Source of the DNA: a virus
Virus record (IMG/VR): IMGVR_UViG_3300045988_183505
Location: 32,001 to 96,000 of that record
Reading direction: 5' to 3' (one strand)
DNA: 64,000 nt
Shown here: positions 14,925 through 37,693 of the stretch, in pieces
Layout of the letters: every line of letters starts with the position of its first letter
Numbering within the stretch: position 1 is the first letter of the stretch
Made by a program: the position numbers and the translations under genes
Notes under the pieces: generated by a model
Seen by the model: only the letters and a program-made list of their open reading frames with translations
Databases searched by the model: none
What the model was told of the DNA's origin: nothing

Positions 14925-14957
14925 AAAATCATACCGATACAACCAAAAGGAAATTAT

Positions 14958-15416: not shown

Positions 15417-15422
15417 TACGCT

Positions 15423-17768
15423 ATGGCAAACGACTTGAAAATCACGCCTGACCAGCTGGAAGAACCAATGCTGGACGAAGGCAAAGTGAATGTCAATTTG
15501 ACACTCTATGACAATCAGCTGGAAGAAATGGCAAGTCGTTCTTCTCTGTACCAGCACATCAGTGAAACACAGAATGCAGACGTGTCTTTCGCTGACTTGC
15601 TGGCAGATGACAGCACAACACTTCAAGCTTATACGGATTTTTATCCCGATAAGCCGCCAGAAACAACACTTAGCCTGCAAAGTGATACCTATGGCTGGTG
15701 CGATTTTGTTGTTCCAACGACAGATACTGAAAAGAATCAGCTGAAAGCCGGATTGGAAGATGTAGCAAGCAGGGAACACACAAGTGCCGATGCAATGATG
15801 TATGAAGTCTTCAAGGAAGAATGGATTGCAGACCACATTGATGATGTGACTATGACAGCTACTGAGGCATTATATGAGAACAGCGAAGAATCAATAGGAC
15901 TGACGTTTGAACAGTATGTGCAGGAGTACGGATTTGAAGACGGTTCTGCACCGCCCTCTTTTGCCGAGTTTTTGGAGAACGACTATACGGAAAGACCAGC
16001 AGAGCAGTCACAGCAGATGTCTTCTGCATCTCCGTATATGAGCAACGATTTTATAGAACAGCCGGAAGAAACTGCTCCTGCTGCGGAACAGTCAGATACT
16101 TCATCAACGAACAATGCGTATGAGCAGGAATATATGCTTTTAGACCGTTTGAAGTCTGATTGTGAATATTATCTCAACACAAATGCAACCGAAGAAAACA
16201 ATCATTTGTGGGCTGGCAATCCGGAAGCTCAGATTGAAAAAATGCAGGAGCTTTATGATATGCTCCCTGAAAAACCGGAATGGCTAACACAGGAAGACAT
16301 CAATCAATATGCACAGCAAATGATTCCGGAAAAGGAGGCTGAAATGGCAATTGCTACTGTTCAAGTCAGAAATATGTTGGTAAATGAGGACGGCAATCTC
16401 TTTGCCACGATGGAAGTGAATCGTTCTCGTATGGAAGAGATGCTAAATGATGCCAACTCGCCCTTGCTGAAAGGAAAAGACATTCACGAGCTGGTTTATT
16501 TCAATGATGCAGCCTCTCCTATTTTGGCGGCGGAAATAAATCGTGATGAATCCGTGCAGGTTTCTGCAATCATGAGGGACGGTTACGAGGAAATTGAAGT
16601 ACCCTTGTCTCTTGATGATAATACAATTGCAGAAATCAAAGATGCTGTCAAAGAAAACGTGGAACAGAGCCTTGATGTTTCTGTCCAGCATTTTTTTGAA
16701 ACTGCCGAGCCGAATCATAATTACTCGCAGGAAGAAGTTCACGCTCTTGCCGAAACGGTCGGTAAATTCGTGACAGCATATCAGGAGGAGCAAGAGCCGG
16801 AAAAAGAATTTTCTCTGGAAAAGAATATTCAGCGTATCGAAGAGGGACTTACTTCTCCGGAAATTCTGCCCAGACTTACTGCGGAACTGGACAAGGCGAT
16901 TGATGTTTCGCAACGAACAACCAGTGAAGGCATCTTCCTTCTTCCTGACAGAATCGTGGAGCAGGCGGTAGAAGTTGCACAGCAGATGGAAATGTACACA
17001 AAACCGCTGGGATTTGAAAAAAACGAGATTGTACAGTTTGACGGCGAAGTTATTATGGACACCGAGACTGCCGATGGAGAAACAAAGCCAACCATCAATC
17101 TGGCGTTGTACATGACAGACGATTTTATGGAACAGGCTCTGGATAGAGCTGGCATTTTTGATGTAAACAATCCAGCTTATCAAGCAGACAGCTTTGAAGA
17201 GCTGATGTTCAATGAAGACGGCACATTCAAAACCTATGTAAACGGCTACATTGATATTTCTGAAAACAAAGAAGTAGACTTCCGTCTGTATACCAGTGGC
17301 GATGCTGAAATAAATGTTCCGCTTTCTGATTCTGAAAAACGTGTCGTGCTGGACAAAGCAGAAGCATATATCGAACAGGAAACCGGCATGACATTTGAGC
17401 AGAATATCGAAGACCTGCGGAACAGCTCTAATGACTGGTATGCGGTGAAAATGGATATTGGCGACACAGTAAATGCTTTCTTTGAAAATGGTGGGGCAGA
17501 GCCGACCACTTCAAAAAGTGGCACATTTACAGTAGCAAAAGCTCCGGAAGGGGAAGCTATCCAACTGATTGACAATGACCTGAAAATGTCTATGGCTGAA
17601 ATGACACCGGCAGACAATGGGTACGTTATCCAAAACTCCATTAACGCAGTTATCAAAGAAGGACTGGAAAATGGCTTAAAACGTGCGGACATGGTTGCTT
17701 CTCAGGAAGTCCAAAAAGAGCAGCCTGCACCGGAAAAGAAGCACAAACAGTCTATCGAAAGAGACTAA
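15423..17768 (+). CDS. large highly acidic protein, unknown function, ERD-type C-terminal tail
   Basis: 781 aa and D/E-rich throughout. AAAGGA RBS. Ends ...PEKKHKQSIERD. Confidence 0.8.
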   Translation: MANDLKITPDQLEEPMLDEGKVNVNLTLYDNQLEEMASRSSLYQHISETQNADVSFADLLADDSTTLQAYTDFYPDKPPETTLSLQSDTYGWCDFVVPTTDTEKNQLKAGLEDVASREHTSADAMMYEVFKEEWIADHIDDVTMTATEALYENSEESIGLTFEQYVQEYGFEDGSAPPSFAEFLENDYTERPAEQSQQMSSASPYMSNDFIEQPEETAPAAEQSDTSSTNNAYEQEYMLLDRLKSDCEYYLNTNATEENNHLWAGNPEAQIEKMQELYDMLPEKPEWLTQEDINQYAQQMIPEKEAEMAIATVQVRNMLVNEDGNLFATMEVNRSRMEEMLNDANSPLLKGKDIHELVYFNDAASPILAAEINRDESVQVSAIMRDGYEEIEVPLSLDDNTIAEIKDAVKENVEQSLDVSVQHFFETAEPNHNYSQEEVHALAETVGKFVTAYQEEQEPEKEFSLEKNIQRIEEGLTSPEILPRLTAELDKAIDVSQRTTSEGIFLLPDRIVEQAVEVAQQMEMYTKPLGFEKNEIVQFDGEVIMDTETADGETKPTINLALYMTDDFMEQALDRAGIFDVNNPAYQADSFEELMFNEDGTFKTYVNGYIDISENKEVDFRLYTSGDAEINVPLSDSEKRVVLDKAEAYIEQETGMTFEQNIEDLRNSSNDWYAVKMDIGDTVNAFFENGGAEPTTSKSGTFTVAKAPEGEAIQLIDNDLKMSMAEMTPADNGYVIQNSINAVIKEGLENGLKRADMVASQEVQKEQPAPEKKHKQSIERD

Positions 17769-17793
17769 ATCAAATACAGAAAGGATAATCAAC

Positions 17794-18114
17794 ATGAGAA
17801 AAAAAGATGCAGTTGCAGAAAAGACGCTGGCGAAAATTCGCAAAGAAGAAGATAAACTGGCTGGTCTTGAACTGAAAAAAGAAGAACTGGAAAATCAAAT
17901 CAAGGAATGCAAGGCTGGTATTGCAGAACTGCGAAAGCAGGAAAAGCGTGAGAAGCTGGAAGCTATCGCTGAACTGAATGATAAAGCTGGCATTTCTTTG
18001 GACGACCTTCTGAAAGCTGCTCAGTCTGGAGACTTTTTCTCTTTGCAGGAAAAGCTGGAGCAGGCAAGCGAACCACACGACACTTCTGTTTCTGCTGACA
18101 CAGATGCAGAATAG
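17794..18114 (+). CDS. small coiled-coil protein
   Basis: The start is refined to ATG 17794 (GAAAGGA upstream). The heptad-rich sequence resembles small coiled-coil (DUF4315-like) proteins of Firmicute conjugative elements. That resemblance is from memory and is low confidence. Confidence 0.6.
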   Translation: MRKKDAVAEKTLAKIRKEEDKLAGLELKKEELENQIKECKAGIAELRKQEKREKLEAIAELNDKAGISLDDLLKAAQSGDFFSLQEKLEQASEPHDTSVSADTDAE

Positions 18115-18142
18115 TGGTTATACATAAAACCTTCCTTCTTAG

Positions 18143-18174
18143 GGCTGTTTGTCTGCGGATAAGCAGCCTTTTTT
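18143..18174 (+). terminator. intrinsic terminator (contains copy 3 of CTGCGGATAAGCAG)
   Basis: GGCTGTTT-gtctgcggat-AAGCAGCC forms an 8-bp stem with one G-U pair, followed by TTTTTT. Confidence 0.65.
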
Positions 18175-18196
18175 CAAAACAGAAAGAGGTGATACT

Positions 18197-18733
18197 TTGA
18201 ACGGCAATTGCCACTTTATCTTTGGTGCAAGTGTTGGTGCATCTCTGGCAATGAATATTGATAAGTTGGATTTCTTCTTTCCCCGAATTATGGACACACC
18301 GGAAATGGCAGTCTTGTTTGTTATGGGTGGTCTTCTCGGCGGTATCTTTCCGGATATTGATAACCCTACTAGCTATGTTGGAAAGCTGACAGCACCAGTA
18401 AGCCGATGGCTCGGCAAGGTTTCAGCTACAATGGGGAAGGAAGGCTGGAATCACAGAGGTATTCTTCATGACCCGATTGTCTATTTGATAGGACTGTTTT
18501 TATGCACTTATCAATTTCCACCGCTGATAGGATTCTTTGTCGGCTGTCTCTCTCACTTGTTTTTAGATATGTTCAATCCAGTAGGCATACCATTTCTTTT
18601 TGGCGTAAAACATCTTCGGCTTGCAAAAGTCCCTAGCAGCAGTAAGCAAGCAATCACTTTGACGTGGATTGCTACTGGAGCAGTATTCTTTGCAGGACTG
18701 GCAGGGTGCTTCTATCCTGCTCTTCTATCTTAA
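18197..18733 (+). CDS. YdjM/DUF457-like membrane-bound metal-dependent hydrolase
   Basis: TTG start at 18197 follows GAAAGAGGTG. Motifs HFIFGA..., FPDIDNPTS, HRGILHD and SHLFLDMFNP sit in hydrophobic helices. Confidence 0.7.
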   Translation: MNGNCHFIFGASVGASLAMNIDKLDFFFPRIMDTPEMAVLFVMGGLLGGIFPDIDNPTSYVGKLTAPVSRWLGKVSATMGKEGWNHRGILHDPIVYLIGLFLCTYQFPPLIGFFVGCLSHLFLDMFNPVGIPFLFGVKHLRLAKVPSSSKQAITLTWIATGAVFFAGLAGCFYPALLS

Positions 18734-18776
18734 ATCATACGCAAATAAACCCGCATAAACTGAAAGGAAACATAAA

Positions 18777-19757
18777 ATGAAAGCTTCGTTATTTTTGCTG
18801 ATTATCTTCGTCCTTGTTGTTCTTGCTTCAAGGGTTCGTGTTGTGCCACAGGCATACATTGTAGTTGTGGAACGACTGGGAACATTCTATAAGCAGTGGG
18901 GAGCTGGTGTCCATTTTTTGATGCCGGTACTGGATAAGCAGGCAAGAAAAATCTCTATCAAGGAGCAGGTGGTAGACTTTAAGCCACAGGCGGTTATCAC
19001 AAAGGATAATGTTACCATGCAGATTGATACTGTTATCTTCTATCAGGTCATGGACGCTGTAAAGTATGTGTACGGCGTAGAAAAGCCAATGCAAGCGATT
19101 GAGAATCTGACTGCGACAACTCTCCGTAACATCATCGGCGATATGGAACTGGACGCAACGCTGACTTCTCGTGATGTTATCAATACTCGTATCACCGATA
19201 TTCTTGACCACGCAACCGACCGCTGGGGAATCAAAGTTCTGCGAGTAGAATTGAAAAACATTCTGCCGCCAGCAGAGATTCGTGATGCTATGGAAAAACA
19301 GATGAAGGCAGAGCGTGAAAAGCGTGAGAAAATTTTGAAGGCACAGGGCGAACGTGAATATCAGGTCACTGTTGCACAGGGCGAAAAGGAAGCCAAAATT
19401 CTTCGGGCAGAGGCTGATAAGCAAACCGCAATCTTAAAAGCAGAGGCAGACAAGGAAGCTGTGATTCTTCGTGGTGAAGCAATCAAGGAGCAGAAAATGC
19501 GTATCGCTGTTGGTGAAGCTCAGGCTATTCGTGAAGTACAGGCTGCAACTGCGGAAAGCTTGGTGAAGCTGAATAATGCAAATCCGAATCAAGCTGTCCT
19601 GACATTAAAATCGCTGGAAGCCTTTGAAAAGGCTGCGGACGGCAAAGCAACTAAGATTATTATTCCCAGCGAGATTCAGGGCGTGGCTGGTCTTGCTGCC
19701 GGATTGAAAGGCGTACTGGAGCAAAATAGTGCCGAAAGCAATACAGAAGATAAATAA
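18777..19757 (+). CDS. SPFH/band-7 (stomatin/prohibitin-like) protein
   Basis: An N-terminal TM helix is followed by VVPQAYIVVVERLGTF...ITKDNV...NLTATTLRNIIGDMELD...WGIKV..VELKNI..P, then an A/E/K-rich coiled coil. Confidence 0.92.
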   Translation: MKASLFLLIIFVLVVLASRVRVVPQAYIVVVERLGTFYKQWGAGVHFLMPVLDKQARKISIKEQVVDFKPQAVITKDNVTMQIDTVIFYQVMDAVKYVYGVEKPMQAIENLTATTLRNIIGDMELDATLTSRDVINTRITDILDHATDRWGIKVLRVELKNILPPAEIRDAMEKQMKAEREKREKILKAQGEREYQVTVAQGEKEAKILRAEADKQTAILKAEADKEAVILRGEAIKEQKMRIAVGEAQAIREVQAATAESLVKLNNANPNQAVLTLKSLEAFEKAADGKATKIIIPSEIQGVAGLAAGLKGVLEQNSAESNTEDK

Positions 19758-19811
19758 TCGTAAGTATATAAGTACAGCAGCTATACAAAACAACAAAATA
19801 ACGATATTGTA

Positions 19812-19840
19812 TTGACAGTGCAGTTTTTTCGTATTATAAT
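19812..19840 (+). promoter_or_regulatory. consensus sigma-A-type promoter
   Basis: TTGACA (19812-19817), 17-nt spacer, TATAAT (19835-19840). Confidence 0.75.
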
Positions 19841-19846
19841 AGTAGT

Positions 19847-20077
19847 TGTGGGAAACCACTAAGCTGGTTGCTCTTTTTCCTACGCTCCGGAAACTTTTTC
19901 ACTCATGTTACGTTTCCAGAGCTAGGCTTGAACGCACCGCCGGAAGGTGCTTAATGATAAAAACGGTGTAATCCGATGGACAGTCCGTTATACGTTTGAA
20001 AGTATCCGTTGTCGGGCTGACAATAGGTACACCGAAGTAGCAGGCATTGTCAATATCGGCAGTGCCTGTTTTCTTTT
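19847..20077 (+). promoter_or_regulatory. structured 5' leader or candidate cis-regulatory RNA ending in a terminator
   Basis: About 230 nt lie between the consensus promoter and the RBS of 20098. Stems seen: GTGG-GAAA-CCAC, CTCCGGAAAC/GTTTCCAGAG, GCACC-gccggaa-GGTGC, long-range CGGTGTA/TACACCG, TTGTC-gggct-GACAA. The terminal hairpin CAGGCATTGTC-aatatc-GGCAGTGCCTG (20041-20068) is followed by TTTTCTTTT. Confidence 0.55.
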
Positions 20078-20097
20078 ACCTTGAAAGGAAGATTACA

Positions 20098-21309
20098 ATG
20101 GAAAATTTACAGCAAAGCACCTATGAAAATGCTGGTCGCTTGATGAATCTTTATGATTACATGGCTGCTATCGGTGATGACAACTATGAAAATCTGTACG
20201 ATGATATTACCCAAGATGTCGATGTGAGATACAGAAGTGATGACAGTGATTATCAGGAATGGGTTGACCAGCTGGCAAAAGAGCATGATTTGTTCTCGAA
20301 AGAAAGCATGGAGAAAATCAATGCTCGATTTGAACCTCAGATTTTTGTAGCAGACGATTCTGCCAAAATCGCTCCTGTTGTATATGATAACCAATACGAC
20401 ACCTATCTGACGTTGGACAAATTTGCAGATGAACTTGAAAGCTATGCAGATATGGACATTGAAGGGGAGAATGAGGTTTATCAAGAAGGTTACTTTTCTC
20501 CTTATTACATGGACGAACCGCCAACAAAAAAAGTTTCCTTTTCCGGCACTTTGGAAACAAGTATGCGTGAACTGGTTCAGGACTTTTATCAGTGGCTGGG
20601 TGAAATTGACGATGAAATCGCACAGCATCTGGAGCAGGTGAGTGAAGATAAGAATATCCCAGCAAGTGAGGTTGCTGTCCTTGCAATCAGCCAGTCTGAC
20701 CGATTGATGACAGCAAACGACTATCTCGTTGCATCGTCTCCAGATATTTATTCCATGTATGAAGATATTGCTGATTACGGATTCAATTACGATGTGAATT
20801 TAGATAACAGCCTGCTCCAGAGCAAGATGCCAGAAATCGAAAAAATTATTCAGGAACATGGTGGCGTTTCCAATCGTACACAGGACGAACTGGAAGACCG
20901 CTTTGAACCACAGGTGCTTGTACGAGACGGCGGCGAAGCAATTGTTACTCCGCTGGTGTACGACAATCAGGAAAATAAGTATATTACAGTCAGCAGTGTG
21001 GCTGATACGTTGAAGGAGATGCTGATTCCTGATGTTCATGGTGAAATCACTGCTGAAAATGGTGAATCTATTCCGTTCAATGCACACATGGACGTAGAAA
21101 GCGAATCTAAACGTATCCTTGCAGACAGCTACAAGCAAAATGCAACATACTTGAAGGAGGCACTTGTCGAAGTAAGAGAGGCATACAAAGATGATATGCC
21201 GAAGCTGAAAGCTACTGTTGACCATTTCAAAGAAAAAATGTCCATTCTGTATGATAAGCGGCAATCAGAAGTGCAGCCCAAAAAAGATTCACAGAACATA
21301 GAGCGATAA
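20098..21309 (+). CDS. acidic protein with an internal ~40-aa duplication, ERD-type tail
   Basis: The start is refined to ATG 20098 (GAAAGGAAG RBS). RFEPQ(I/V)...VYDNQ...(L/V)..(F/V)AD.L occurs twice. Ends ...QPKKDSQNIER. Confidence 0.75.
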   Translation: MENLQQSTYENAGRLMNLYDYMAAIGDDNYENLYDDITQDVDVRYRSDDSDYQEWVDQLAKEHDLFSKESMEKINARFEPQIFVADDSAKIAPVVYDNQYDTYLTLDKFADELESYADMDIEGENEVYQEGYFSPYYMDEPPTKKVSFSGTLETSMRELVQDFYQWLGEIDDEIAQHLEQVSEDKNIPASEVAVLAISQSDRLMTANDYLVASSPDIYSMYEDIADYGFNYDVNLDNSLLQSKMPEIEKIIQEHGGVSNRTQDELEDRFEPQVLVRDGGEAIVTPLVYDNQENKYITVSSVADTLKEMLIPDVHGEITAENGESIPFNAHMDVESESKRILADSYKQNATYLKEALVEVREAYKDDMPKLKATVDHFKEKMSILYDKRQSEVQPKKDSQNIER

Positions 21310-21372
21310 TTGTGATAACGGTTACGATGTGATAAAATTAAACAAATACACATTAGAAAGTTGGGATAAATT

Positions 21373-22239
21373 ATGGGTTTTGCATCAAAAGAACAAGTTG
21401 ACACAATTTCAGCACTAACTTCGCAGCTATATCGCTACTACTCTACCGCCTATTATGAAGGAGTGTACAGCGGCAAATTAGATAAAGCCATTGAACACGA
21501 CTTGATTCCATGGCTTTTGGAATTGAAAAAAGAAGTGGAAGCAGAAGGTTGCCACTTAGATTCGATGGGGGTTTATTTCAGAAATGACAGACCTGTCTTA
21601 CAGTATGGCAGAACTGTCGTATGCAGTTATGACGCTATGGACAATGCCACTATGCGAAAGCTAAAGCTTCCGCTTACCGATGTTAAATTGGTTCGGAAAG
21701 AAGTAGAGGCTGACCTTTATCAGATGATAATGGACTTAAAATCTGGTATGACTGTGGAACAGTTTGCAGAGAAGTATCGTGGAAATGATATATACCACGG
21801 CGTTCCAGAACTGGAGCAGCACATACTGGAGCAGATAAGTTCCGGCAACAGTGATGACGTAACACTTAATGCTATAATCGCCAATGGAAAATCAGTTTCT
21901 GTTATTAGAGCAAATCTTCAATCAGACCTTGCCGTAGCAAAATTTCTATCTCAAAACTACCTTGTTCGTGTGGGATATAACGATGGTAAGATTGTTCTGG
22001 GAGATTCTGTTATAGACCGTTATGCCATTCGGGTTCGCTGTATAAAAAGTGACGCAAATGCAAGTTTCAAAAAAGACCCACTCAAAATCAAATGTTTTGA
22101 GGTGGATTTGAAATTTGCAAATGGGAACAGAAGTTTACTGACATTTAGACCGAGTGATAGCCCTTTTTATGTTCCGCAAATAGAAAAGGTTTTAACTGAA
22201 AATGCAATTGGAGAGGAGAAGAAACAACGTGGACGGTAA
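21373..22239 (+). CDS. hypothetical protein
   Basis: 288-aa ORF in the co-directional array. No family recognised. Confidence 0.65.
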   Translation: MGFASKEQVDTISALTSQLYRYYSTAYYEGVYSGKLDKAIEHDLIPWLLELKKEVEAEGCHLDSMGVYFRNDRPVLQYGRTVVCSYDAMDNATMRKLKLPLTDVKLVRKEVEADLYQMIMDLKSGMTVEQFAEKYRGNDIYHGVPELEQHILEQISSGNSDDVTLNAIIANGKSVSVIRANLQSDLAVAKFLSQNYLVRVGYNDGKIVLGDSVIDRYAIRVRCIKSDANASFKKDPLKIKCFEVDLKFANGNRSLLTFRPSDSPFYVPQIEKVLTENAIGEEKKQRGR

Positions 22240-23317
22240 TCAATCTATCAATCAGATGTTAGCAATCCACAAGGAGCAGGAACTGGAAATTCAGAACATG
22301 GATTTTCAGAACCTGTCCGACCATGACAAACAAGTTCTTGCTGAATATGCAGAAACCAAAGTGTTGCTGCATAATACAGCAAATGTAATTCAATTTGTCC
22401 AAAACTCTGCACAGGTTATTACAGACGAAAATGGACAAAAGCAGGCAGTAGGTATGCTGGATAAGGAATCTTATGCGGAGCTTTCTGTATTTGCTACCAT
22501 GAATCAAAATCCGGAACTTCTGGAAATGGCGAAGCAAAGTCAGATAACCGAACTGCCGCTTTCTGAAAAAGCTGCCCTCTGGGAAAAAGGGGAGAACACG
22601 CAGCAAGAAATTTTGCTTCACACGCCAGCTACTGTTGATAATTTTGTAGAAGCTGGATACGACAGTTTCTATGTTGGAGATGGCACTGTTGAAGTGCTGG
22701 ACGCAACACTTGCAGATGCGATGGAGCTGATGAAAGATTATGGTATTGACCAATCTGATGTGTATAACAGTACACGGGAACAATTCCGACTGATGCAGGA
22801 ACAGCAGTCACTTGTGAACTATGAATACACCGAAAAAGAGCAGGAACTTTCTGAGGAAAATGAATATTTACAGCGGCAGATGGAATTACAGGAAATTGCA
22901 AAACAAGCCGTTGAAGAAAACTACTCCAAAGATGATAAAGACGGTTTGCAGGAACGGTTCTCTCTCACTACAGAAGAAGTTGCTGCCGTTGCTGTTGCAA
23001 TGCAGACTTACGAATGGATAAAGCTTGCAGAAGCATGGGAACAGGAGAACCTTGCCGAGAAAACAAAAGAACAAGAGCCTGCTGAAATCGTAGAAAGCTC
23101 TGATGGGTATGTCATGGCAATGAGCAAAATGACACCGCAGAATGAGAAACAGCTGCAATCCAGAATTGAGAACGGCAATGAGGTAATTCATCATGAAACA
23201 GCAAGGGAAACAACAACAGACCCTGCACAGGTGAAACCGAATGTAAAGCTGGAAACAGCTCAAAACAAAGGCACACAAGAAAAGAAAGCAAGACAGGTAG
23301 ATTATGACAGGGATTAA
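22229..23317 (+). CDS. acidic hypothetical protein, ERD-type tail
   Basis: The frame is open from 22202. GTG 22229 has GGAGAGGAG about 10 nt upstream, and ATG 22256 is an alternative start. Ends ...EKKARQVDYDRD. Confidence 0.65.
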   Translation: MDGNQSINQMLAIHKEQELEIQNMDFQNLSDHDKQVLAEYAETKVLLHNTANVIQFVQNSAQVITDENGQKQAVGMLDKESYAELSVFATMNQNPELLEMAKQSQITELPLSEKAALWEKGENTQQEILLHTPATVDNFVEAGYDSFYVGDGTVEVLDATLADAMELMKDYGIDQSDVYNSTREQFRLMQEQQSLVNYEYTEKEQELSEENEYLQRQMELQEIAKQAVEENYSKDDKDGLQERFSLTTEEVAAVAVAMQTYEWIKLAEAWEQENLAEKTKEQEPAEIVESSDGYVMAMSKMTPQNEKQLQSRIENGNEVIHHETARETTTDPAQVKPNVKLETAQNKGTQEKKARQVDYDRD

Positions 23318-23330
23318 AAGAAAGTAGCCT

Positions 23331-23359
23331 TTGGTATATCTTGTTATACCAATACTACT
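23331..23359. repeat. recombinase core-type site B (29 nt identical to site C)
   Basis: TTGGTATA-TCTTGT-TATACCAA-TACTACT, in the 125-nt gap between 23317 and 23442. Confidence 0.7.
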
Positions 23360-23441
23360 ATTATTTGCCCTATTTATTTTTATCAAAAAATAACGAAAAA
23401 CCACCTGTACAACAACTCATAAGCAAGACGAAAGGATTCAT

Positions 23442-23825
23442 ATGAATAGCTTATATAACATTTTTCAAAATGAAAAAGAGCGGAATCCGGATATGACCGT
23501 GTACTACAACAAGCAGACGAACTCTATCTCTTATCGGAATGAAGAAGGCACTTTGACAGCATTGTTTCGTGGAGAGAATGAGTATTTCTACTTCAAATCT
23601 CCAAACAAAAAGCCGGAAGAAATGCAGACCAATATCGGAGATATGATTCTTAACACCTATGGTGAAAAGAATGGCATTATCCGTGGCAGAATGCAAAATG
23701 AATTTTTCGATACGCCGGAACGATTTAAGCGTCTGGCAAAAGATTATCAGAACTGCCGAGATGAAATCGGCATTGATGACAACCCTAAGAAATCAACAAA
23801 GCGTAAAAACGTAGAAAGGGATTAA
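23442..23825 (+). CDS. hypothetical protein, ERD-type tail
   Basis: 127 aa. GAAAGGA RBS. Ends ...NPKKSTKRKNVERD. Confidence 0.65.
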   Translation: MNSLYNIFQNEKERNPDMTVYYNKQTNSISYRNEEGTLTALFRGENEYFYFKSPNKKPEEMQTNIGDMILNTYGEKNGIIRGRMQNEFFDTPERFKRLAKDYQNCRDEIGIDDNPKKSTKRKNVERD

Positions 23826-23827
23826 GT

Positions 23828-24118: not shown

Positions 24119-24122
24119 ATGA

Positions 24123-28766: not shown

Positions 28767-28769
28767 ATA

Positions 28770-29687
28770 ATGGGCAAAAGTTTACAACTAAGCTATGACA
28801 GAGATGCACTGTGCAAGGCAATCCCTATAGAAGATGTGATTCAGCTGTATGCAGGAATCCGGACAGACCGGCGAGGCAACATTTCATGCCCATCTCCGAA
28901 CCATGCTGATAAGCACCCTTCCACTAAAATTTTTCATGATTCCAACACTTGCTTTTGTTTCAGCTGCAAAAAAAGTTATGACCCTGTTTCACTTGCATTT
29001 GACTACAATCCGAATTTAAGCACTCCGGAATTGTATAAGAAGCTAACCGAAGATTTCGGCATACCACTGGAATCCGTCAGCAATATTCAGCAGGTGCGAG
29101 AAGTGGAACAGGCGAACCGTGAAAAGCGGTTTATTGACGTATTTCCACTCAGCGTTTCTGAGTGCAAAAGAATCGGTCTTGATGGTGTTCTCGGTGCAGT
29201 GAAGCCAGATGAAAACAGAGAAGATGACGATAAACCGCCAGAAGTTCAGGAACGCTTTCCGTCTTTGATGGAACTCTGGAAAACAGAGAAAGCAGCCGTG
29301 GAATCTCTTTTAATTGCGAAGTGCGATGATACTTTGGACGACTTGAAAAGTGAATTGGACTGGAAAACAGAACACTTCCTAAGTGTCTATAAGGACTTTA
29401 CTCCGCACAGTGCAGATTTTCAGGAAGCACAAAGAATCCATGAGGCGGTAGAACGCTATAAATCGACCGACACTCCTGTCAAAGTGAATATGATGTCAAA
29501 GCATGATGACGCATTATATACAAAATACGCCTTTTTCAAGGACAGTGTTGATGATTTGAAACAGCTCCGTGCTGAAATGTCCAGTGTCCTCAGAATCAAG
29601 GAGAAAGTGTTGAGCCAGCAAAAGGAACGGCAAAAGGAGCAGTTCAAGGGATTTCATAAAAAGAAAACAACCGTAGAAAGGGACTAA
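28770..29687 (+). CDS. CHC2 (DnaG/primase-type) zinc-finger protein without a Toprim domain, ERD-type tail
   Basis: CPSPNHADKHPSTKIFHDSNTCFCFSCKKSYDPVSLAF matches the zf-CHC2 pattern (CPFH..EKTPS....F.CFGC). The remainder is acidic and helical. Ends ...HKKKTTVERD. Confidence 0.75.
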   Translation: MGKSLQLSYDRDALCKAIPIEDVIQLYAGIRTDRRGNISCPSPNHADKHPSTKIFHDSNTCFCFSCKKSYDPVSLAFDYNPNLSTPELYKKLTEDFGIPLESVSNIQQVREVEQANREKRFIDVFPLSVSECKRIGLDGVLGAVKPDENREDDDKPPEVQERFPSLMELWKTEKAAVESLLIAKCDDTLDDLKSELDWKTEHFLSVYKDFTPHSADFQEAQRIHEAVERYKSTDTPVKVNMMSKHDDALYTKYAFFKDSVDDLKQLRAEMSSVLRIKEKVLSQQKERQKEQFKGFHKKKTTVERD

Positions 29688-29691
29688 AAAC

Positions 29692-30738
29692 ATGAGTGGC
29701 TATGCAATAGACAGCAATGGCAATGCTGTTGCTATCAATAATGCAAAGCAAATACAGATGGTACAACCTTTGGAAAATCGCAGGAAGGAGCTGGTGAAAT
29801 ATGTTTATCAGCTCACTCCCCTGCTCCAGAGTGCAGGGTTGAATGTGAATACAAATCAGTTCACTTTGTTATTTTCTCCAAACGGCATACTCGAAAAAAT
29901 TGTGCTGTTTGCCAAAATACCATTACAGTCTAACAGCCCTTTAGTAAAGCAGGCTTTTGAAGCAAGTACCCATTATGATTATCCGTTTCAAAGCAATCAG
30001 CAGAAGGCTTTTCTAAAAAGCATTTATTGCATTCAGGTAAACTACAAACCAACATGGTGGTATGTTAGTGCCGAAGTTATTACGTTAGAACGGAATATCA
30101 TAGACGGCATTTGGATTTCTGCCAAAAAAGAAGCCTCTATCCCTTATTATGCGTTTCAATCGAAATACCAGCTGAAAAGTGTCGAACAGCCAATCCAGTC
30201 GCCGCAGACGTTCTGGTGTATATCTCTTACCGGAGAATCTTTACCAGACAACGTGAACGACCTGTTCCCACTCATGGCACAGATTCCAAGTAAAAGTACG
30301 ATACTTGCAGATGCAGTATCAAAAGTAAATCAGAACATCGGAATTTCTGCAAAGGATTCCAATAGCAATCAAATCTCCAGCTGTTTAAGGCTGATAAATT
30401 CACCTCTGAATGGCAAGATATATCCTTTGTACAAGGAACTGAAACAATTTATTTCCAGAACATATCCGTATGCAGATGATGAACACGGTGCATTTAACAT
30501 CTCTTACAAAGATGATGCAATCCGTTTCCAGTTGCAGGACGGACGAAAAGCAGAGATATTCGTCAAGGGTAATGCTTCATCTCCCACCTTTGTCTCTGGT
30601 GGATATACCGTAAAGGGCATATCTGCTATGGAAGAAGCAATCGCCAATGGCAACTGCTTCCGTAAGACAACATGGTTTGATGCTAAAGCAAGCCCTTATA
30701 TCCTGCGTAAACCACGAAAAGAAAATAAACCGAAGTAA
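29692..30738 (+). CDS. hypothetical protein
   Basis: 348 aa. It starts 4 nt after the upstream stop. No family recognised. Confidence 0.65.
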   Translation: MSGYAIDSNGNAVAINNAKQIQMVQPLENRRKELVKYVYQLTPLLQSAGLNVNTNQFTLLFSPNGILEKIVLFAKIPLQSNSPLVKQAFEASTHYDYPFQSNQQKAFLKSIYCIQVNYKPTWWYVSAEVITLERNIIDGIWISAKKEASIPYYAFQSKYQLKSVEQPIQSPQTFWCISLTGESLPDNVNDLFPLMAQIPSKSTILADAVSKVNQNIGISAKDSNSNQISSCLRLINSPLNGKIYPLYKELKQFISRTYPYADDEHGAFNISYKDDAIRFQLQDGRKAEIFVKGNASSPTFVSGGYTVKGISAMEEAIANGNCFRKTTWFDAKASPYILRKPRKENKPK

Positions 30739-30766
30739 ATCATACGAAATGAAAGAGGGTAACACA

Positions 30767-32806
30767 ATGGCAAATAAAAGTACCGCAGCCGATGAGAAAA
30801 AGTCATGGCTGAAAAAAATTCTGGAGAAGTTAAAAAAACTGGTTGAGCGAAGCAAAGCTCCCACCTTGTTCCAGAAGTATGAGGAAATCCAGAAGAACCT
30901 GAATGAAATGGTAGAACAAAATGAGGTCAGCACAGAAGCTCTGAAAGACTTGTATTCTATCACGGCAGAAATGGAAGGTAAACTCGGCGGCATGGAAGAA
31001 GAAGACAAGCAGACGCTTGAAACTGGTCTTAGCGACATAGAACAAAGCATGAAGGAAGAAGTTGCCAAGCATCATACTGAAATCACCGGAGACATTTGCC
31101 GAGCTTTGTCTGACGTGTCTGGCTTGGACTATGATGATGTGAAGCAGATGCTTTTCAATTCTGACGCTACACAAATTTTCACTTCCGGCACAGACACCTA
31201 CATCTCTTTGGAAAAACTCGGTTCTTTCAAGGCAAATGTTGTATTGGAAGAAGATGCAAGAAACGCCTTTGTGTTGTTTGAAAAAGCTGATATTCCGGAA
31301 AATGCACAGCAGTATCTCATGGAAAATGATACAGAAAGCACTTTGATTTCCGCACTGAACCAAACATACGCAGAAAAGGTGCGGTCTGACCGTGCAGCTG
31401 AACAGGCTACAGAAGGCATAGAAACTACATTGCCATCTGGGAAACAGCCAAGAGAACGAAAAACACGACTTGAAAGATTTCGTGACAAATATGCAAACAT
31501 GGCAGAAAATCAAGACACGTTCGTCATCAGCAAGCTGTTTGAGGACAACTCATTCCGTCTGAGATACCCTGATGGAAATATGCTTGTTGTTTCCAAGAAA
31601 GCAGAAGGCGAATATCGAACCAGCCTTTATCGTAACACCTCTCCTTCCCTGACAATCAATGGTGCTTCTTCTGAAATTGGTGTCTGGAAAAGCGAAAACG
31701 GCAGAATCTCTGCCAACTTTACTTTGCCAAATGAGCCGTCAGTCAGCATCTTGTTCCATTCCGCAGAGATGAAAGAATATCTCCAGACTATCGGTGTGCC
31801 GAAAGATATGATTCAGCAGCTGTCTGACAATACATCTAACGGCAAATCGGAACGTGTCAACAAGGCTGATTTTGAGAAGGTGCAGAAATTATATGACACT
31901 ATCAGAGATTCCTTCGATAACGGCGTAAATCAAATGGGCGAGGTCGTAGCAGACCATTGCCTTTCTATGCACCACCCCACATTTGGCAAGGGACATACCT
32001 ATATCAATCTCAAACCAGAAGGAGTTTTGAGAGATGTGCTTTCAATTGGATTTGACAGAAATGGTACTCCTACAACTCTGAATTATAAGCCTAATGCCAA
32101 TGGACGGTTTGAGCCAATATACAATTTGATTACAAATGACTTTGTTGGTGAAGCTGGTGCAAAGCTGTACGGTACAAATCCTGACTTCCACAGAGCTATG
32201 CAGCGGATTATCAAATCAATAGATAAAACCAGTGCATATCAGGCAGCATCTCTGCCGAATCCGAAAGCGGAAGAAATGAAGCGTGCCGGTGATGTAGTGA
32301 GCCGTTCTTTCCAGAGCAAAAGTAAATATTCTGCCCTCAATCAGGAACGTACCGGCGTAATGCAGGAATGGTACAAGGCAGCTATCTTAATGGGTGCTGC
32401 TACAGAACTCGGAGACACTGCGTTGAGAAATTCTGCAATGCAGATTATGCAGAATGTTGTAGAGGGACACACCGGAAGTCAAAATGGATTCAAAAACATG
32501 GTAGAGCTTATGGAGAAATCCGAAACCTACAAAATGGAGATGGCTCGTTTTCAGGCAAAAGATTTGAAGGAAATCTTTTCACAGGACTGCACACAGGAAA
32601 TGCGTGGCAGCAAAGATAACAACACTCTTTTTCAGGACGCAATCCGCAATTTGGCTGGCAGAATCGGCGGTGCAGAAGCTATGACTGCTATTGCCGCTGC
32701 ACAGCACTTTCAGCAGGAACAGGTTGAAAAAGAATTGCAGGCACAGAAACAGGAGCGGAAGCCGAAAAAGAGCTACGGTAAATCAGGAAGTGAGGAAAGA
32801 ACATAA
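30767..32806 (+). CDS. large hypothetical protein, ERD-like tail
   Basis: The start is refined to ATG 30767 (GAAAGAGGG about 8 nt upstream); the track ORF begins at 30647 inside the previous gene. Ends ...KPKKSYGKSGSEERT. Confidence 0.7.
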   Translation: MANKSTAADEKKSWLKKILEKLKKLVERSKAPTLFQKYEEIQKNLNEMVEQNEVSTEALKDLYSITAEMEGKLGGMEEEDKQTLETGLSDIEQSMKEEVAKHHTEITGDICRALSDVSGLDYDDVKQMLFNSDATQIFTSGTDTYISLEKLGSFKANVVLEEDARNAFVLFEKADIPENAQQYLMENDTESTLISALNQTYAEKVRSDRAAEQATEGIETTLPSGKQPRERKTRLERFRDKYANMAENQDTFVISKLFEDNSFRLRYPDGNMLVVSKKAEGEYRTSLYRNTSPSLTINGASSEIGVWKSENGRISANFTLPNEPSVSILFHSAEMKEYLQTIGVPKDMIQQLSDNTSNGKSERVNKADFEKVQKLYDTIRDSFDNGVNQMGEVVADHCLSMHHPTFGKGHTYINLKPEGVLRDVLSIGFDRNGTPTTLNYKPNANGRFEPIYNLITNDFVGEAGAKLYGTNPDFHRAMQRIIKSIDKTSAYQAASLPNPKAEEMKRAGDVVSRSFQSKSKYSALNQERTGVMQEWYKAAILMGAATELGDTALRNSAMQIMQNVVEGHTGSQNGFKNMVELMEKSETYKMEMARFQAKDLKEIFSQDCTQEMRGSKDNNTLFQDAIRNLAGRIGGAEAMTAIAAAQHFQQEQVEKELQAQKQERKPKKSYGKSGSEERT

Positions 32807-34530
32807 TGCCGGAAATCACACTCGATGAGCTTTTACAGGAAGTGAAAGCAAAGGAAGAAAAGATGGGTGAATCGCCGGACGTTACTGCCAAAATCAATTT
32901 GACAGCTACACGACTGGAACAAACGGCACGGTCTGGTTCTGTAAAGATTCTGACAGACTACGATGCAGACGGTATTTGTTCCGCATTCATTATGCAAAGG
33001 ACAATTCAGAGCATTGCTCCAGACACCCATGTGGAAGTACAGTGCAATGACCGCAGAGGCTCATATGGCGTTTCCAGTGAGATAGAAAGTGATGGTGTTT
33101 CAAAGTATATCGTACTGGATATGGGAAGCAACCAGCTCCAGCAGTTACAAGAAACATTAGGTGATGATGTTATTATCATTGACCATCACTTAATAGAAGA
33201 ACAGATAAACATAGATGCTTTCAATTACAATACACGTCTTTTGAATCCGCATAGTATGTCTTATGAAGAAGGCAACAGTGCAGATTATTGTGCAACAGGG
33301 CTTGTATATCGTCTCTATCAGCAAATGCAGGAACGTATCCCAGAAATGATACATAGCGAAAAGCAAGACAACACTATCGCTATTATGGCAGCAATCGGCA
33401 CTGCTGCGGATATGGTCGATGTTATGGATATGCGTTCCAACAATCGACAGATTCTGAAAGACGGCGTAGAAAAGATAAATAATGCAGACGAGAACAACAT
33501 TGAATATCCGATTGGCTATATGCTTGCTACAGCTGGTATCGGGCAGGACGATGTGACCGCCCATGATGTAGCTTTCAATGTTGGTGCATTCCTGAATGCA
33601 GCTTCACGAATGAGTGAAATCCTGCAAGAAAACGGTGCTCAGAGAATGTATGATGCTATCTCCAGCGGAGACAATCCGGCAACTTATCAGCAGATTGATA
33701 TACTTGCCGAAATCAACAAAGACCGGAAAGCTTACATCAGTGAACTTACCGGTACTGAAAGCTATCGTCAATTCTTAGAAGAACAGAGAAATAGCCCCAA
33801 CAACATTGCCCTTTATGAATTGCCACAGGATACCCCAGCTGCCTTTGCTGGACTTGTTGCAGGCAAGTTGGCAGAAGCAACGGACAAAGCTATCATCTGT
33901 GTCACTTACAGTTCCAGCAGAGAATGCTATACCGGAAGCGGCAGAAATGTTGCATCAAACGAAACTGGCTTGAAAGATTTTTTGGACAGCCTTGATTTAA
34001 GCGATAAGATGCAGTACGGCGGTCATACAGACGCTATCGGCATTTCACGACTAGATGATATACGCTTTCTGGAAAGTCGCTTAGAAGCCAATATAAACGC
34101 TATGGAACGCAAGTCAGGCGACAGGCTGGTATTGAAAATGTCTCCGCAGGAACTATCCTCTCCTGAGACCTTGGAAAAAATGAAAGCAATCGAACCCCTT
34201 GGCACTGGATTAAAGCTTCCACCTATGGAGATAGAGGGGAAAGAACAATATCGAAATGGTTTGTACGTCAAAAAGAATCCGTCATGGAAAAAGGTGCGTA
34301 TCAAAGCGGACGATACAACATTGAATATTCCAGACTGGTCATACTCCCCTGCCTCTTATCCGCAGGACAGCAAAGGGAACATCAAAATTCTTGCAGAAGT
34401 CGGACTGAACTCATTCAATGGGCAGAGCGTTGAACTCACTGCAAAATTTGACCGTTCTTTCCAACAAGAACGCCAGAAGGAACTCCAGCATGATAAACCA
34501 GCACCGAAAAAAGGTGCGGAAAGGGAATAA
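32806..34530 (+). CDS. recJ: RecJ-like DHH-family phosphoesterase (probable ssDNA exonuclease), ERD-like tail
   Basis: Motifs are ILTDYDADGICSA, IIIDHH (33181-33189) and the DHHA1-like GGHTDAIG. The start overlaps the upstream stop as TAATG. Ends ...APKKGAERE. Confidence 0.85.
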   Translation: MPEITLDELLQEVKAKEEKMGESPDVTAKINLTATRLEQTARSGSVKILTDYDADGICSAFIMQRTIQSIAPDTHVEVQCNDRRGSYGVSSEIESDGVSKYIVLDMGSNQLQQLQETLGDDVIIIDHHLIEEQINIDAFNYNTRLLNPHSMSYEEGNSADYCATGLVYRLYQQMQERIPEMIHSEKQDNTIAIMAAIGTAADMVDVMDMRSNNRQILKDGVEKINNADENNIEYPIGYMLATAGIGQDDVTAHDVAFNVGAFLNAASRMSEILQENGAQRMYDAISSGDNPATYQQIDILAEINKDRKAYISELTGTESYRQFLEEQRNSPNNIALYELPQDTPAAFAGLVAGKLAEATDKAIICVTYSSSRECYTGSGRNVASNETGLKDFLDSLDLSDKMQYGGHTDAIGISRLDDIRFLESRLEANINAMERKSGDRLVLKMSPQELSSPETLEKMKAIEPLGTGLKLPPMEIEGKEQYRNGLYVKKNPSWKKVRIKADDTTLNIPDWSYSPASYPQDSKGNIKILAEVGLNSFNGQSVELTAKFDRSFQQERQKELQHDKPAPKKGAERE

Positions 34531-35505
34531 ATGATGGGCAGTTATATTGATAAAAAAACCAGAGAAGCTATGGCGAATGAACCGTCAATGCAGGAAGTTG
34601 CTGACGCTGCATTGAAAAAGGCTGATGCCTTGATGCACGACTTGCAAGAAATCAACCTTGACGTTTACATAGACAAAAAAGGAGCTGAACAGCATAGCAA
34701 GGCAAAAGTATCTGTTCGCCAGAGTATGATGCGTGATGATAATGGAAAGTACACCATTCCAGAAATACACAAAGATGGTTCTCCAGCATACGTTTATGAA
34801 ATCGGTATTATGCACGGTAATGAAACAGTCGCCCTTACCGGAAAAGATACAAATGATTGTAATTATATTGGTGTCCGGAAATGGGATAATGAAGCTCCAA
34901 ATAAAAAAGGTACGACTGGAAATATGACCTATTTCAGAGAAGCGGATATTTCCGGTGCAGACCTAAAGCCTACTACGAAAGCTGTTGCTGCTTATGCCAG
35001 AGAATCCGGCTTTGTAAAGGAAACGGTTTGGAAGCAGCGAAAGCAGGAACATTCTTCTCCAGAAACACCCAAGGCAACTCAGCCGCAAAAGTCCTCTCCT
35101 GCTCCAAAGGAACTTTCAATGCAGGAAAGAGCAGAAAATGTAAACGATTTTCTTCGTGCAAAAACTCCCAAAATGATTGTTCAGGGGCGGCTTGTTTCTG
35201 ACGGTACAGCAGAATATCGTAATGACGAACATCACGGCGAACGGATTCTTATGGTAAGCAGAAGCTGCAATGCGGCTGTAACAGTCAGAGATACTGAACA
35301 GGGTGCATCTGTTGAAATCGGAGTTCGTAATAAGGACGGCAACATTGAACGCTTCTCCGGTAATACAAATTGGGACATAGATAAGTATATTACCGACAGC
35401 ACATTTGCCACCGCTATAAAGAACGTAAAAGCTGAAATTGATAAGTCACATGGTCTGACACCGGAACACGGTTCTACCAGACCAAAAAGTAACATCGAAA
35501 GATAA
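34531..35505 (+). CDS. hypothetical protein, ERD-type tail (last gene of the plus array)
   Basis: 324 aa. The ATG directly follows the upstream TAA. Ends ...RPKSNIER. Confidence 0.65.
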   Translation: MMGSYIDKKTREAMANEPSMQEVADAALKKADALMHDLQEINLDVYIDKKGAEQHSKAKVSVRQSMMRDDNGKYTIPEIHKDGSPAYVYEIGIMHGNETVALTGKDTNDCNYIGVRKWDNEAPNKKGTTGNMTYFREADISGADLKPTTKAVAAYARESGFVKETVWKQRKQEHSSPETPKATQPQKSSPAPKELSMQERAENVNDFLRAKTPKMIVQGRLVSDGTAEYRNDEHHGERILMVSRSCNAAVTVRDTEQGASVEIGVRNKDGNIERFSGNTNWDIDKYITDSTFATAIKNVKAEIDKSHGLTPEHGSTRPKSNIER

Positions 35506-36688: not shown

Positions 36689-36721
36689 ACATCTCCTGTT
36701 CCGTTGGCTTATATACTGGAT

Positions 36722-37691: not shown

Positions 37692-37693
37692 GT

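Follow-up and report, generated by a model that had tools for sequence, protein, structure and literature searches.

Why do ten proteins encoded in one stretch of DNA end in the same few residues? The question is raised by positions 15,423 to 35,505 of a 64,000-nucleotide (nt) stretch of viral DNA (IMG/VR record IMGVR_UViG_3300045988_183505, positions 32,001 to 96,000), which we call the window and which has a guanine plus cytosine (GC) content of about 42 %. An earlier note, made from the sequence alone, had described these C-termini as a basic P-K-K stretch followed by a hydrophobic residue and E-R-D, and had proposed them as an export or translocation tag. Here we show that the tail is a genuine motif that is selected at the protein level, restricted to particular gene arrays and found together with conjugation genes. 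We then weigh what such a tail may do, a cargo signal for a type IV secretion system (T4SS) being the candidate that we favour.

Ten unrelated proteins end in the same tail

The ten C-termini that had been reported, and the codons quoted for them, all proved correct on translation. They are listed below with the length of each protein in amino acids (aa), the distance to the following gene where it is informative, and one related variant; SD stands for Shine-Dalgarno sequence.

17730..17768, plus strand: tail PEKKHKQSIERD and stop, 781-aa acidic LPD11 protein (15423..17768)
21274..21309, plus strand: tail QPKKDSQNIER and stop, 403-aa acidic protein (20098..21309); next start 63 nt away
23279..23317, plus strand: tail EKKARQVDYDRD and stop, 362-aa acidic protein (22229..23317); next start 124 nt away
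23781..23825, plus strand: tail NPKKSTKRKNVERD and stop, 127-aa protein (23442..23825); GAA AGG GAT TAA GT ATG, SD for the gene at 23828
29655..29687, plus strand: tail HKKKTTVERD and stop, 305-aa CHC2 zinc-finger protein, DnaG N-terminal-like (28770..29687); next start 4 nt away
32759..32806, plus strand: tail KPKKSYGKSGSEERT and stop, 679-aa protein (30767..32806); stop overlaps the next ATG
34501..34530, plus strand: tail APKKGAERE and stop, 574-aa DHH/RecJ-like nuclease (32806..34530)
35479..35505, plus strand: tail RPKSNIER and stop, 324-aa product of the last operon gene (34531..35505)
43325..43369, minus strand: tail NPSKQHTKENLERD and stop, 112-aa protein (43325..43663) of a second mobile-element-like region
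45884..45928, minus strand: tail APKAEKAGKDMERD and stop, 114-aa protein (45884..46228); codons GAA CGT GAT TAG
28725..28766, plus strand: related variant basic tail HKKSSPQKGVEQGA and stop, 1547-aa LPD1 protein (24123..28766); overlaps the SD of the gene at 28770

The start codons chosen for the 403-, 362- and 679-aa proteins match the gene calls of public contigs. Domain searches agree with the earlier annotations (DHH/RecJ-like, CHC2 zinc finger, large acidic proteins) and assign the large proteins to LPD11 (15423..17768, E 2e-26) and LPD1 (24123..28766, E 9e-16). The poorest match to the consensus is the tail at 32806, with E at position -2 counted from the Arg and T as the last residue. 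The two minus-strand genes do lie outside the operon, as had been said; more precisely, they belong to the second mobile-element-like region, to the right of the integrase. No homologue of the 112-aa protein was found among the fetched loci.

The tail-bearing window proteins are not paralogues. Nothing is alike outside the tail, which is the sole part that they have in common, and paralogy was rejected on that ground. Most of them are acidic, with isoelectric points of 4.1-5.8, and two are near-neutral (6.8 and 7.7). A hydropathy scan detected no hydrophobic or transmembrane (TM) segment in any tail-bearing protein, while the tail is lacking from the three operon products predicted to be membrane-associated (a 152-aa protein encoded from 14958, the YdjM-family protein and the SPFH protein). 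A cell-surface sorting signal of the LPXTG, PEP-CTERM or GlyGly-CTERM kind and the like was also rejected: no TM helix follows the motif and no NCBIfam sorting-signal model matched.

A further protein of the window has a similar ending. The 189-aa product of 40556..41125 (minus strand) ends …EHKKVKRIGF and its copy in L011 (16637..17206) ends …EHKKVERIGF, a K-K-V-E-R followed by three extra residues that is possibly a decayed or masked tail.

Enrichment and shape of the motif

The ending [E/D]-R-(D/E/T)-stop occurs in 8 of the 16 operon genes, compared to about 0.008 expected per gene from amino-acid composition. Of the 415 open reading frames (ORFs) of the window (stop to stop, at least 60 aa, six frames), only 13 have [ED]R[DET]? 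as their ending, and they include all ten reported genes. Across five tail-bearing loci, Phi-[ED]-R-[DE]? (Phi, hydrophobic) ends 18 of 47 proteins, whereas its internal rate is 0.0034 per position (binomial p ~3e-27).

To describe the anatomy of the tail, we aligned 47 tails at their Arg; the sole selection criterion was an [E/D]-R close to the C-terminus. Position -1 is E in 87 % and D in 13 %; position -2 is I, V, Y or F in 79 %; position -3 is D, S, N or G in 79 % and never basic. Lys or Arg make up 36-62 % of positions -4 to -7 (background 12.6 %), and the Arg is followed by nothing in 45 %, by D in 34 % and by E in 9 %. The residues that played no part in the selection (-2, -3 and -4 to -7) are thus non-random too, and the consensus reads K-rich (-7 to -4), D/S/N (-3), I/V/Y/F (-2), E (-1), R, then nothing or D/E. 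Proline is modest across the tails overall, the P-K-K of the earlier description being a trait of the window's own tails, several of which are also preceded by a Q-x-E-R-Q-K-E stretch.

The motif spans the last 8-25 residues of the tail proteins. In the 574-aa RecJ-like protein the TIGR00644 recJ model covers residues 7-540, leaving the last 34 aa beyond the core; because the core stops at residue 540, we consider the tail of this protein an appended extension. An AlphaFold2 model of the 362-aa protein has no secondary structure and a predicted local distance difference test score (pLDDT) of ~30 over residues 312-362; this model is of low confidence (pLDDT 53, shallow alignment) and is used only for the unstructured C-terminus. 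In Pfam, NCBIfam and PHROG scans of the tail proteins no model covers the tail, and most of the proteins have no family. Full-text literature searches, which mostly leave subscription journals outside so that a prior description is possible, returned no published description of the motif.

Conservation in orthologues and distant relatives

A diverged copy of the element (L011/L013), whose proteins are 56-95 % identical to those of the window, retains every tail. The E and the R are invariant in 7 of 7 orthologue pairs; changes at the hydrophobic and the final position are conservative. The clearest case is the orthologue of 20098..21309 in L013, which is 59 % identical and ends QPEKKSPSIER: here ATA GAG CGA TAA has become ATC GAA CGG TGA, all three codons of I-E-R and the stop being replaced synonymously. 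A natural I-to-M allele at position -2 of the same tail occurs in L005 and L050. The orthologue of 23442..23825 keeps NVERD with GTA changed to GTG, and those of 28770..29687, 30767..32806 and 32806..34530 end QKKKTNVERE, REKTGSEERA and TPKKGVERD respectively. P0002, a homologue of 34531..35505 (80 % identical), ends RPKSDVER. The variant tail of the LPD1 protein behaves similarly, PQKGVEQGA being retained in L013 although the whole protein is 56 % identical.

More distant comparisons come from two families. A profile search with the 362-aa protein recovered members at 26-30 % identity that end DDYER, VDFDR, ISFDR and QETER; six sequences of this family consist of a conserved core, a hypervariable linker of 6-37 residues and, last, K-K-x-x-[Y/F/T]-[D/E]-R(-D). 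The tail of the 781-aa protein is kept by its 308-aa allele P0009, which ends SVERD, and the distant relatives P0017, P0020, P0028 and P0140 have the tail too. Word-indexed searches with the 324-aa and CHC2 proteins yielded nothing beyond the element itself and a single relative at 71-80 % identity, which is too close for a conservation test. The tail is therefore not absent from orthologues, being retained both in the diverged copy and in family members at 26-30 % identity. Taken together, these results show that the tail is a linear motif of the extreme C-terminus that is under purifying selection at the protein level.

Relation to ribosome-binding sites

One explanation for a recurrent E-R-D before a stop codon is a ribosome-binding site for the next gene. 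For four window tails (23825, 29687, 32806 and 34530) the following gene starts 0-4 nt away, and the GAA-AGG-G or GAG-GAA-AGA of the tail reads as an SD. The remaining six of the ten (17768, 21309, 23317, 35505, 43325 and 45884) are uncoupled, so the tail does not always stand beside a start codon. After 17768 the following gene is served by a separate SD 25 nt downstream, and the one start overlapped by the tail at 45884 is a possible GTG at 45891. The earlier note had listed 23317, 35505 and 43325 as having no closely following gene, and this is what we see: a 124-nt gap at the first, a terminator at the second and, 3' of the third, a hairpin with a short T-run (below the threshold of the terminator scan) and then a strong promoter (11/12). 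The same holds elsewhere: for most tails in L016, L020, L061 and L062 the next start comes 12-146 nt later and is served by a separate SD.

Codon use points in the same direction. We tallied the Arg codons of 35 automatically collected motif-matching ORF ends from seven loci, one window case being a chance match. Coupled tails have AGG in 5 of 9 cases, versus 8 % of Arg codons overall, while the 21 uncoupled tails use AGA (8), CGT (4), CGA (3), AGG (3) and Lys codons (3). Elsewhere in the window some 25 gene pairs are tightly coupled and have other endings. Because uncoupled tails exist, Arg codons are mixed and coupled pairs elsewhere end otherwise, it is the protein that is constrained; only in tails directly adjoined by another gene has the GAA AGG of the E-R codons been co-opted as an SD. 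The claim that conservation is at the protein level and does not reflect a common ribosome-binding site is thus strongly supported by synonymous turnover, mixed Arg codons, distant relatives and other elements. The accompanying remark on binding sites needs qualification: tails are not generally coupled, but four window tails do double as the SD of the adjoining gene. We also looked at the nucleotides 3' of the stop codons, which are unrelated between tails, and a cassette boundary or attC-like repeat was rejected on this basis.

Tail arrays in other elements

Sister loci were found by an exhaustive phmmer search with the 781-aa protein and by locus searches using YdjM as bait. The phmmer relatives have the N-terminal 70-aa domain alone in common with the 781-aa protein, and several of them end …SVERD, …NVERE, …SIERE, …TVERD or …PVERD. 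In at least eight other diverged elements, with GC contents of 31-50 %, we found arrays in which otherwise unrelated proteins finish in this way; this bears out the expectation that the tail recurs in related elements.

L016, GC 36 %: tails on 6-8 of 15 genes
L020, GC 44 %: tails on ~9 of 11
L051, GC 50 %: tails on 3 of 3
L055-L059, GC 37 %: array after YdjM, 3 of 16 by strict automated count, more with E-K or K-E-R endings
L060, GC 34 %: array after YdjM, 5 of 13 by strict automated count
L061, GC 31 %: tails on 7 of 8 genes after YdjM
L062, GC 44 %: tails on ~8 of 13

An automated count gives 30 tails in 100 array genes compared to 4 in 353 elsewhere (Fisher p = 1e-17), the latter set being made up of control loci, backbones and neighbouring regions. 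Conjugation backbones hold 1 tail in 41 genes, the YdjM-bearing phage-like contigs L052-L054 (26-31 % GC) 0 in 110 genes and loci with the 70-aa domain (30-32 % GC) 0-1 per ~30 genes. L055, L061 and L062 have the same backbone as the window, with topoisomerase III (TopoIII) and RepL- or Mob-type genes divergent from the YdjM operon. The cargo of the sister arrays includes NT5C, WGR-PARP, LPD1/YodL, DUF3849, HEAT and LPD11 proteins, and L062 adds an ArdC-N protein.

YdjM is the protein that the arrays share most clearly. It heads the tail arrays in L055-L062, and its window and L016 versions are 57 % identical where other common proteins reach at most ~38 %. YdjM homologues (54-57 % identity) are also present in the tail-less L052-L054. 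A protein search of PLSDB with YdjM returned homologues at no more than 36 % identity, annotated as 'metal-dependent hydrolase'. L061 encodes an FtsH-like AAA/M41 protease (4124..5926) upstream of YdjM. The SPFH gene of the window operon and the integration of window-type elements beside host ftsH in ten contigs may be functionally linked with this protease or merely coincide with it.

Modularity of the tail-bearing proteins

Domains of the tail-bearing proteins also occur in other settings. L024-type fusion proteins carry the globular domain of 45884..46228 (residues 2-99) internally and without a tail, and in P0029-type proteins this domain is followed by the 70-aa domain and then by …TSEDMERD/MEHD. 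The ~70-aa conserved domain, encoded at 15800..16010 (residues ~127-195 of the 15423..17768 protein) and without a Pfam match, follows the pattern Y-E-x-[YF]-K-x-E-W-I-x-D-H-I-D-D-V-T-M-T-A-T-E-A-L-Y-E-N…E-Y-V-x-E-Y-G-F. In many elements, tailed as well as tail-less, it occurs in fusions with LPD11, NT5C and further modules. A search of the GTDB representatives (185,579 species) with it returned a single 2.5-kb contig and no close relative. In one allele of the window element a 308-aa version substitutes for the 781-aa protein with the tail retained. From these combinations it appears that domains are shuffled while the tail stays terminal.

Architecture of the window element

Conjugation and replication genes occupy positions 1-13000 on the minus strand, divergent from the tail operon. 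The latter consists of 16 genes on the plus strand (14958..35505), is preceded by a gene-poor gap of ~2 kb and is closed after 35505 by a bidirectional terminator. The genes below lack the tail where so marked.

2977..5535, minus strand: VirB4-like conjugation ATPase, 852 aa (TraG P-loop / DUF87 / weak T4SS-DNA_transf); no tail
5553..6908, minus strand: Mob_Pre (MobV-type) relaxase (Pfam PF01076, E 2.5e-20); no tail
9038..11236, minus strand: TopoIII, conjugation/replication module
12426..12965, minus strand: RepL-like protein, conjugation/replication module
from 14958, plus strand: 152-aa protein with a C-terminal TM segment; no tail
18149..18733, plus strand: YdjM-family predicted membrane metal-dependent hydrolase (Pfam PF04307, E 5e-18); no tail
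18777..19757, plus strand: SPFH/Band-7 membrane-associated protein with an N-terminal hydrophobic segment (Pfam PF01145, E 3.5e-39); no tail
35561..36733, minus strand: tyrosine integrase at the right end of the element (Pfam PF00589)

Contigs that carry identical genes extend this picture to the left of the window. A canonical VirD4 (T4SS-DNA_transf, TrwB_AAD_bind, TraG-D_C) lies ~10 kb left of the ATPase in L014 and L015, outside the window, and a 1913-aa protein is likewise encoded just to the left. Apart from the relaxase, no T4SS component beyond the VirB4-like ATPase and VirD4 was seen in the element. We place the right end of the element at the integrase because host ftsH/hpt/tilS come next in ten public contigs (L001-L010), directly or via an alpha/beta-hydrolase gene.

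The gap between the RepL-like gene and the tail operon (12966..14957) contains iteron-like direct repeats and palindromes, especially at 13179..13221 and 13798..13940. The repeats are TAATACTATAAGC…ACTGTAT (three times), GG[G/T]AAT.C.GTATTAGCTAATA (twice) and AGTAGTCAC…TGACTAT (twice). This gap is a candidate origin, oriT or regulatory region; L061 (1691-2960) and L062 (4388-5722) have a similar one.

The second mobile-element-like region (36880..55333, minus strand) follows the integrase in tandem, in the window and in one diverged copy. It encodes NikA-like and HPr-like proteins, an alpha/beta hydrolase, an S26 signal peptidase, RelB, an AAA+ ATPase, a J-domain protein, HTH_17, TraX and a second integrase-like protein, and it carries both minus-strand tail genes (43325 and 45884). 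The region is related to L024/L043-type contigs, with 57-70 % protein identity for the five best-conserved common genes. In most of its L024-type relatives exactly one protein ends …TSEDMERD. Farther on, among small minus-strand genes in the rightmost part of the window, lies a twister ribozyme of type P5 (59525..59594, minus strand; Rfam RF02684, 54.6 bits versus a gathering threshold of 37.6, E 1.4e-8).

Two population variants were noted. L007 has a large deletion that fuses the conjugation ATPase region to a truncated LPD1 gene, and L050 has the 308-aa version in place of the 781-aa protein. Public assemblies contain the exact CHC2 protein sequence in 1564 indexed data blocks, and human gut metagenome is the label of several fetched contigs. 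A megablast search against annotated plasmids and phages (PLSDB, INPHARED) gave no close DNA relative of the element, and the 1547-aa LPD1 protein had no match in GTDB representative genomes (185,579 species). Gene content and the style of the ribosome-binding sites lead us to infer a Gram-positive host.

What the tail may do

We hypothesize that the tail is a cargo signal for a T4SS. To us this is the best explanation, and we put recognition of the tail and transfer to the recipient at an even balance of true and false. The tail would be a portable targeting signal of ~10-25 residues, with a flexible Lys-rich part, often containing P-K-K, followed by [D/S/N]-[I/V/Y/F]-E-R-(D/E)-COOH. Integrative conjugative elements of low-GC gut bacteria would attach it to a large number of unrelated proteins that have no predicted TM segment and whose genes all lie in an operon divergent from the conjugation and replication genes. 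A VirD4-type coupling ATPase or an adaptor would recognise the tail and load the protein into the T4SS, and the tailed proteins would enter the recipient with the DNA or just ahead of it. The cargo would comprise the RecJ-like nuclease, the primase-type zinc-finger protein and the acidic LPD1/LPD11 proteins, to which the sister elements may add ArdC-N, WGR-PARP and NT5C proteins.

Several observations are consistent with this T4SS hypothesis. A VirB4-like ATPase and a Mob_Pre relaxase are encoded in the window, with VirD4 just outside, and the predicted membrane-associated proteins of the operon carry no tail. The cargo classes (LPD1, LPD11, ArdC-N, PARP, NT5C, YodL, primase zinc finger) are those proposed (PMC5512222) to be delivered together with DNA. 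There is also a precedent in the charge-dependent C-terminal signals of VirB/D4 substrates (Vergunst et al. 2005, as cited in PMC8406263). Other observations weigh against it. The relaxase, the one certain T4SS substrate, has no tail. The last 20 residues have a net charge of only -1 to +4, and the alternation of acidic and basic residues at the end is unlike the Arg-rich Agrobacterium consensus. YdjM is the best-conserved gene of the arrays, and SPFH and the FtsH-like protease of L061 fit a partner on the donor side equally well. The tail-rich contigs L016, L020, L051 and L060 are too short to reveal a T4SS. Finally, if the operon is a leading region, early expression in the recipient could replace protein transfer.

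The alternative that we take most seriously, while thinking it unlikely, is a docking or processing signal that acts in the donor. The tail would recruit proteins to YdjM, SPFH, an FtsH-like protease or a chaperone for sequestration, activation or C-terminal clipping, and potentially toxic cargo such as a nuclease, a PARP or a nucleotidase might need to be kept inactive there. That YdjM is by far the most conserved common array protein (57 % between window and L016 against at most ~38 %), that it stands at the head of the arrays in L055, L060, L061 and L062, and that the window has SPFH and L061 an AAA/M41 FtsH-like gene would all fit. However, YdjM homologues at 54-57 % identity occur in phage-like contigs of 26-31 % GC with 26-45 genes each and zero tails, SPFH and FtsH-like genes are missing from some arrays, and we know of no peptidase activity in the YdjM family. 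Such docking is also compatible with T4SS delivery and could form one step of it. A C-terminal degron, keeping effector levels low in the donor or timing their removal in the recipient through an AAA+ protease, would account for a free, unstructured, short motif on many unrelated proteins, and HflK/C-type SPFH proteins, of which the window operon may hold a counterpart in its own SPFH gene, regulate FtsH, which has a relative in the L061 operon. We nevertheless judge it improbable: known bacterial C-terminal degrons (ssrA-type, for example L-A-A) end non-polar, while the tail is highly charged and ends in R, R-D or R-E; the arrays have no protease in common; and it is not obvious why half of what a long and costly operon produces should carry a degron.

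We find it just as hard to believe that the Lys-rich part is an SPKK-like nucleic-acid binder through which the proteins coat the transferred single strand or the relaxosome and ride along, with no individual recognition. The P-K-K or K-K-K clusters lie 4-9 residues from the end and several cargo proteins are DNA enzymes (RecJ-like, primase zinc finger, ArdC-N), but the best-conserved part is Phi-E-R at the free C-terminus and not the basic patch, which non-specific DNA binding leaves unexplained. Moreover, the net charge of the tail is near zero in several cases and the largest tail proteins are strongly acidic (net -42 to -111). A functionless C-terminal module, spread by duplication and domain shuffling among recombining cargo genes, seems very improbable. 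It would agree with the varied combinations of the w45884 domain, the 70-aa 'KEEWIADHIDDVTMTATEALYEN' domain and LPD11, with the similar Q-x-E-R-Q-K-E before several window tails and with paralogues in the L055 arrays that have similar C-terminal regions. A neutral remnant would not persist at the exact C-terminus across 26-30 % identity and a hypervariable linker, synonymous-only change would be unexpected, and the tail recurs on unrelated folds in elements from 31 % to 50 % GC. We give almost no credence to a by-product at the nucleotide level, an embedded SD or a repeated cassette boundary, which is refuted as a sufficient cause and survives as secondary codon use. The four window tails 0-4 nt from a start, with GAA AGG G or GAG GAA AGA, and the AGG in 5 of 9 coupled tails versus 8 % overall are what it predicts. 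Against it stand the six of ten uncoupled window tails and most tails of L016, L020, L061 and L062, the two window tails that end transcription units (35505 and 43325), the mixed Arg codons of uncoupled tails, the ~25 coupled pairs that end otherwise, the lack of conservation after the stop and the synonymous turnover inside the motif.

Returning to the T4SS hypothesis, we propose with slightly less than even confidence that K-K-x-x-[D/S/N]-Phi-E-R-(D/E)-COOH is the first consensus secretion signal of a monoderm (Gram-positive-type) conjugative T4SS, one by which a widespread family of gut integrative conjugative elements injects a dozen or more unrelated effectors and whose tag has been borrowed by neighbouring mobilisable elements. 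If true, the injected set would consist of nucleases, PARP/ART enzymes, nucleotidases, ArdC-like anti-restriction proteins and many proteins of unknown function, and the 'effectorome' of such elements would be readable straight from sequence.

Significance

The choice of proteins that travel with conjugating DNA is poorly known, especially in Gram-positive bacteria. To our knowledge no consensus signal has been described for Gram-positive conjugation, and our literature searches found none either. Should the tag be a T4SS signal, candidate injected proteins, mostly 'dark' proteins without a family, could be listed from metagenomes, and the tag would offer a handle for engineered protein delivery between gut bacteria. 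Even with a partner other than a T4SS, a conserved C-terminal motif on dozens of unrelated proteins would imply an undiscovered recognition system. What is described here belongs to a part of the microbiome that is common yet looks uncultured.

Comparison with known systems

In encapsulin cargo loading and in type VII secretion, unrelated cargo is directed to a single machine by a short, conserved peptide at the C-terminus. The tail resembles both in being a short C-terminal peptide after a flexible linker, while the motifs differ. An encapsulin shell gene, a WXG100 partner or EssC/EccC was not seen in the window, and a type VII signal was rejected as Pfam scans showed no WXG/EssC genes.

The E-block of Legionella Dot/Icm effectors (context in PMC5802825) is a Glu-rich C-terminal stretch at about -10 to -17 that is found on hundreds of unrelated effectors and read by the coupling complex. 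It is likewise a C-terminal linear signal on unrelated proteins. In contrast, the corresponding zone here is rich in Lys and conservation is seen in the last 3-5 residues: at each position from -14 to -8 Lys equals or exceeds Glu (Lys 8-18, Glu at most 8, of 39-47 tails).

The VirB/D4 substrates of Agrobacterium (VirE2, VirE3, VirF and VirD5) carry positively charged C-terminal signals (Vergunst et al. 2005, as cited in PMC8406263). Common to both systems are a short unstructured extreme C-terminus with basic residues, its presence on unrelated proteins and a VirD4-type coupling protein. Location and disorder (the latter from a low-confidence model) and the coupling protein agree, while an Arg-rich, net-positive consensus is not seen. 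The tail uses Lys where the Agrobacterium signal is Arg-rich (R-x7-R-x-R-x-R), has an invariant Phi-E-R-(D/E) end and a net charge often near zero. The hosts here are low-GC and probably monoderm, and the targets would be bacterial recipients.

Conjugative T4SSs send plasmid proteins to recipients, among them the Sog and TraC primases, ArdC, and PsiB, SSB and ParA/B of the F-like pED208, in which translocation depends on relaxosome docking (PMC8406263). These are establishment and anti-defence proteins, as the cargo here would be, and the two sets overlap in the primase-type zinc finger (window) and ArdC-N (L062). Those systems have no defined common short C-terminal consensus, whereas here a sharp motif is found on up to about half of the operon.

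There is also a likeness in cargo to the polyvalent proteins of phages and conjugative elements, for which delivery with the invading DNA was proposed (Iyer et al. 2017, PMC5512222). According to the same text they carry 2-15 effector domains per polypeptide, usually with a processing peptidase; a keyword search of this text did not find the tail. LPD1 and LPD11 in the window, PARP, NT5C, YodL and ArdC-N in the sister arrays and the shuffling of domains are alike. Unlike in polyvalent proteins, most domains here are on separate polypeptides, each with the same tail, instead of being joined in a giant product that an internal peptidase cuts. One Pfam domain was detected per window tail protein and no MPTase, and the 781-aa and 1547-aa proteins may hold unrecognised domains. 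On the T4SS reading, such elements would use one tag on many proteins as an alternative to fusing effector domains in one polyvalent protein. On the sequence evidence the tail appears to be new, in that no described signal matches it, and to belong to a known kind, the C-terminal cargo signals.

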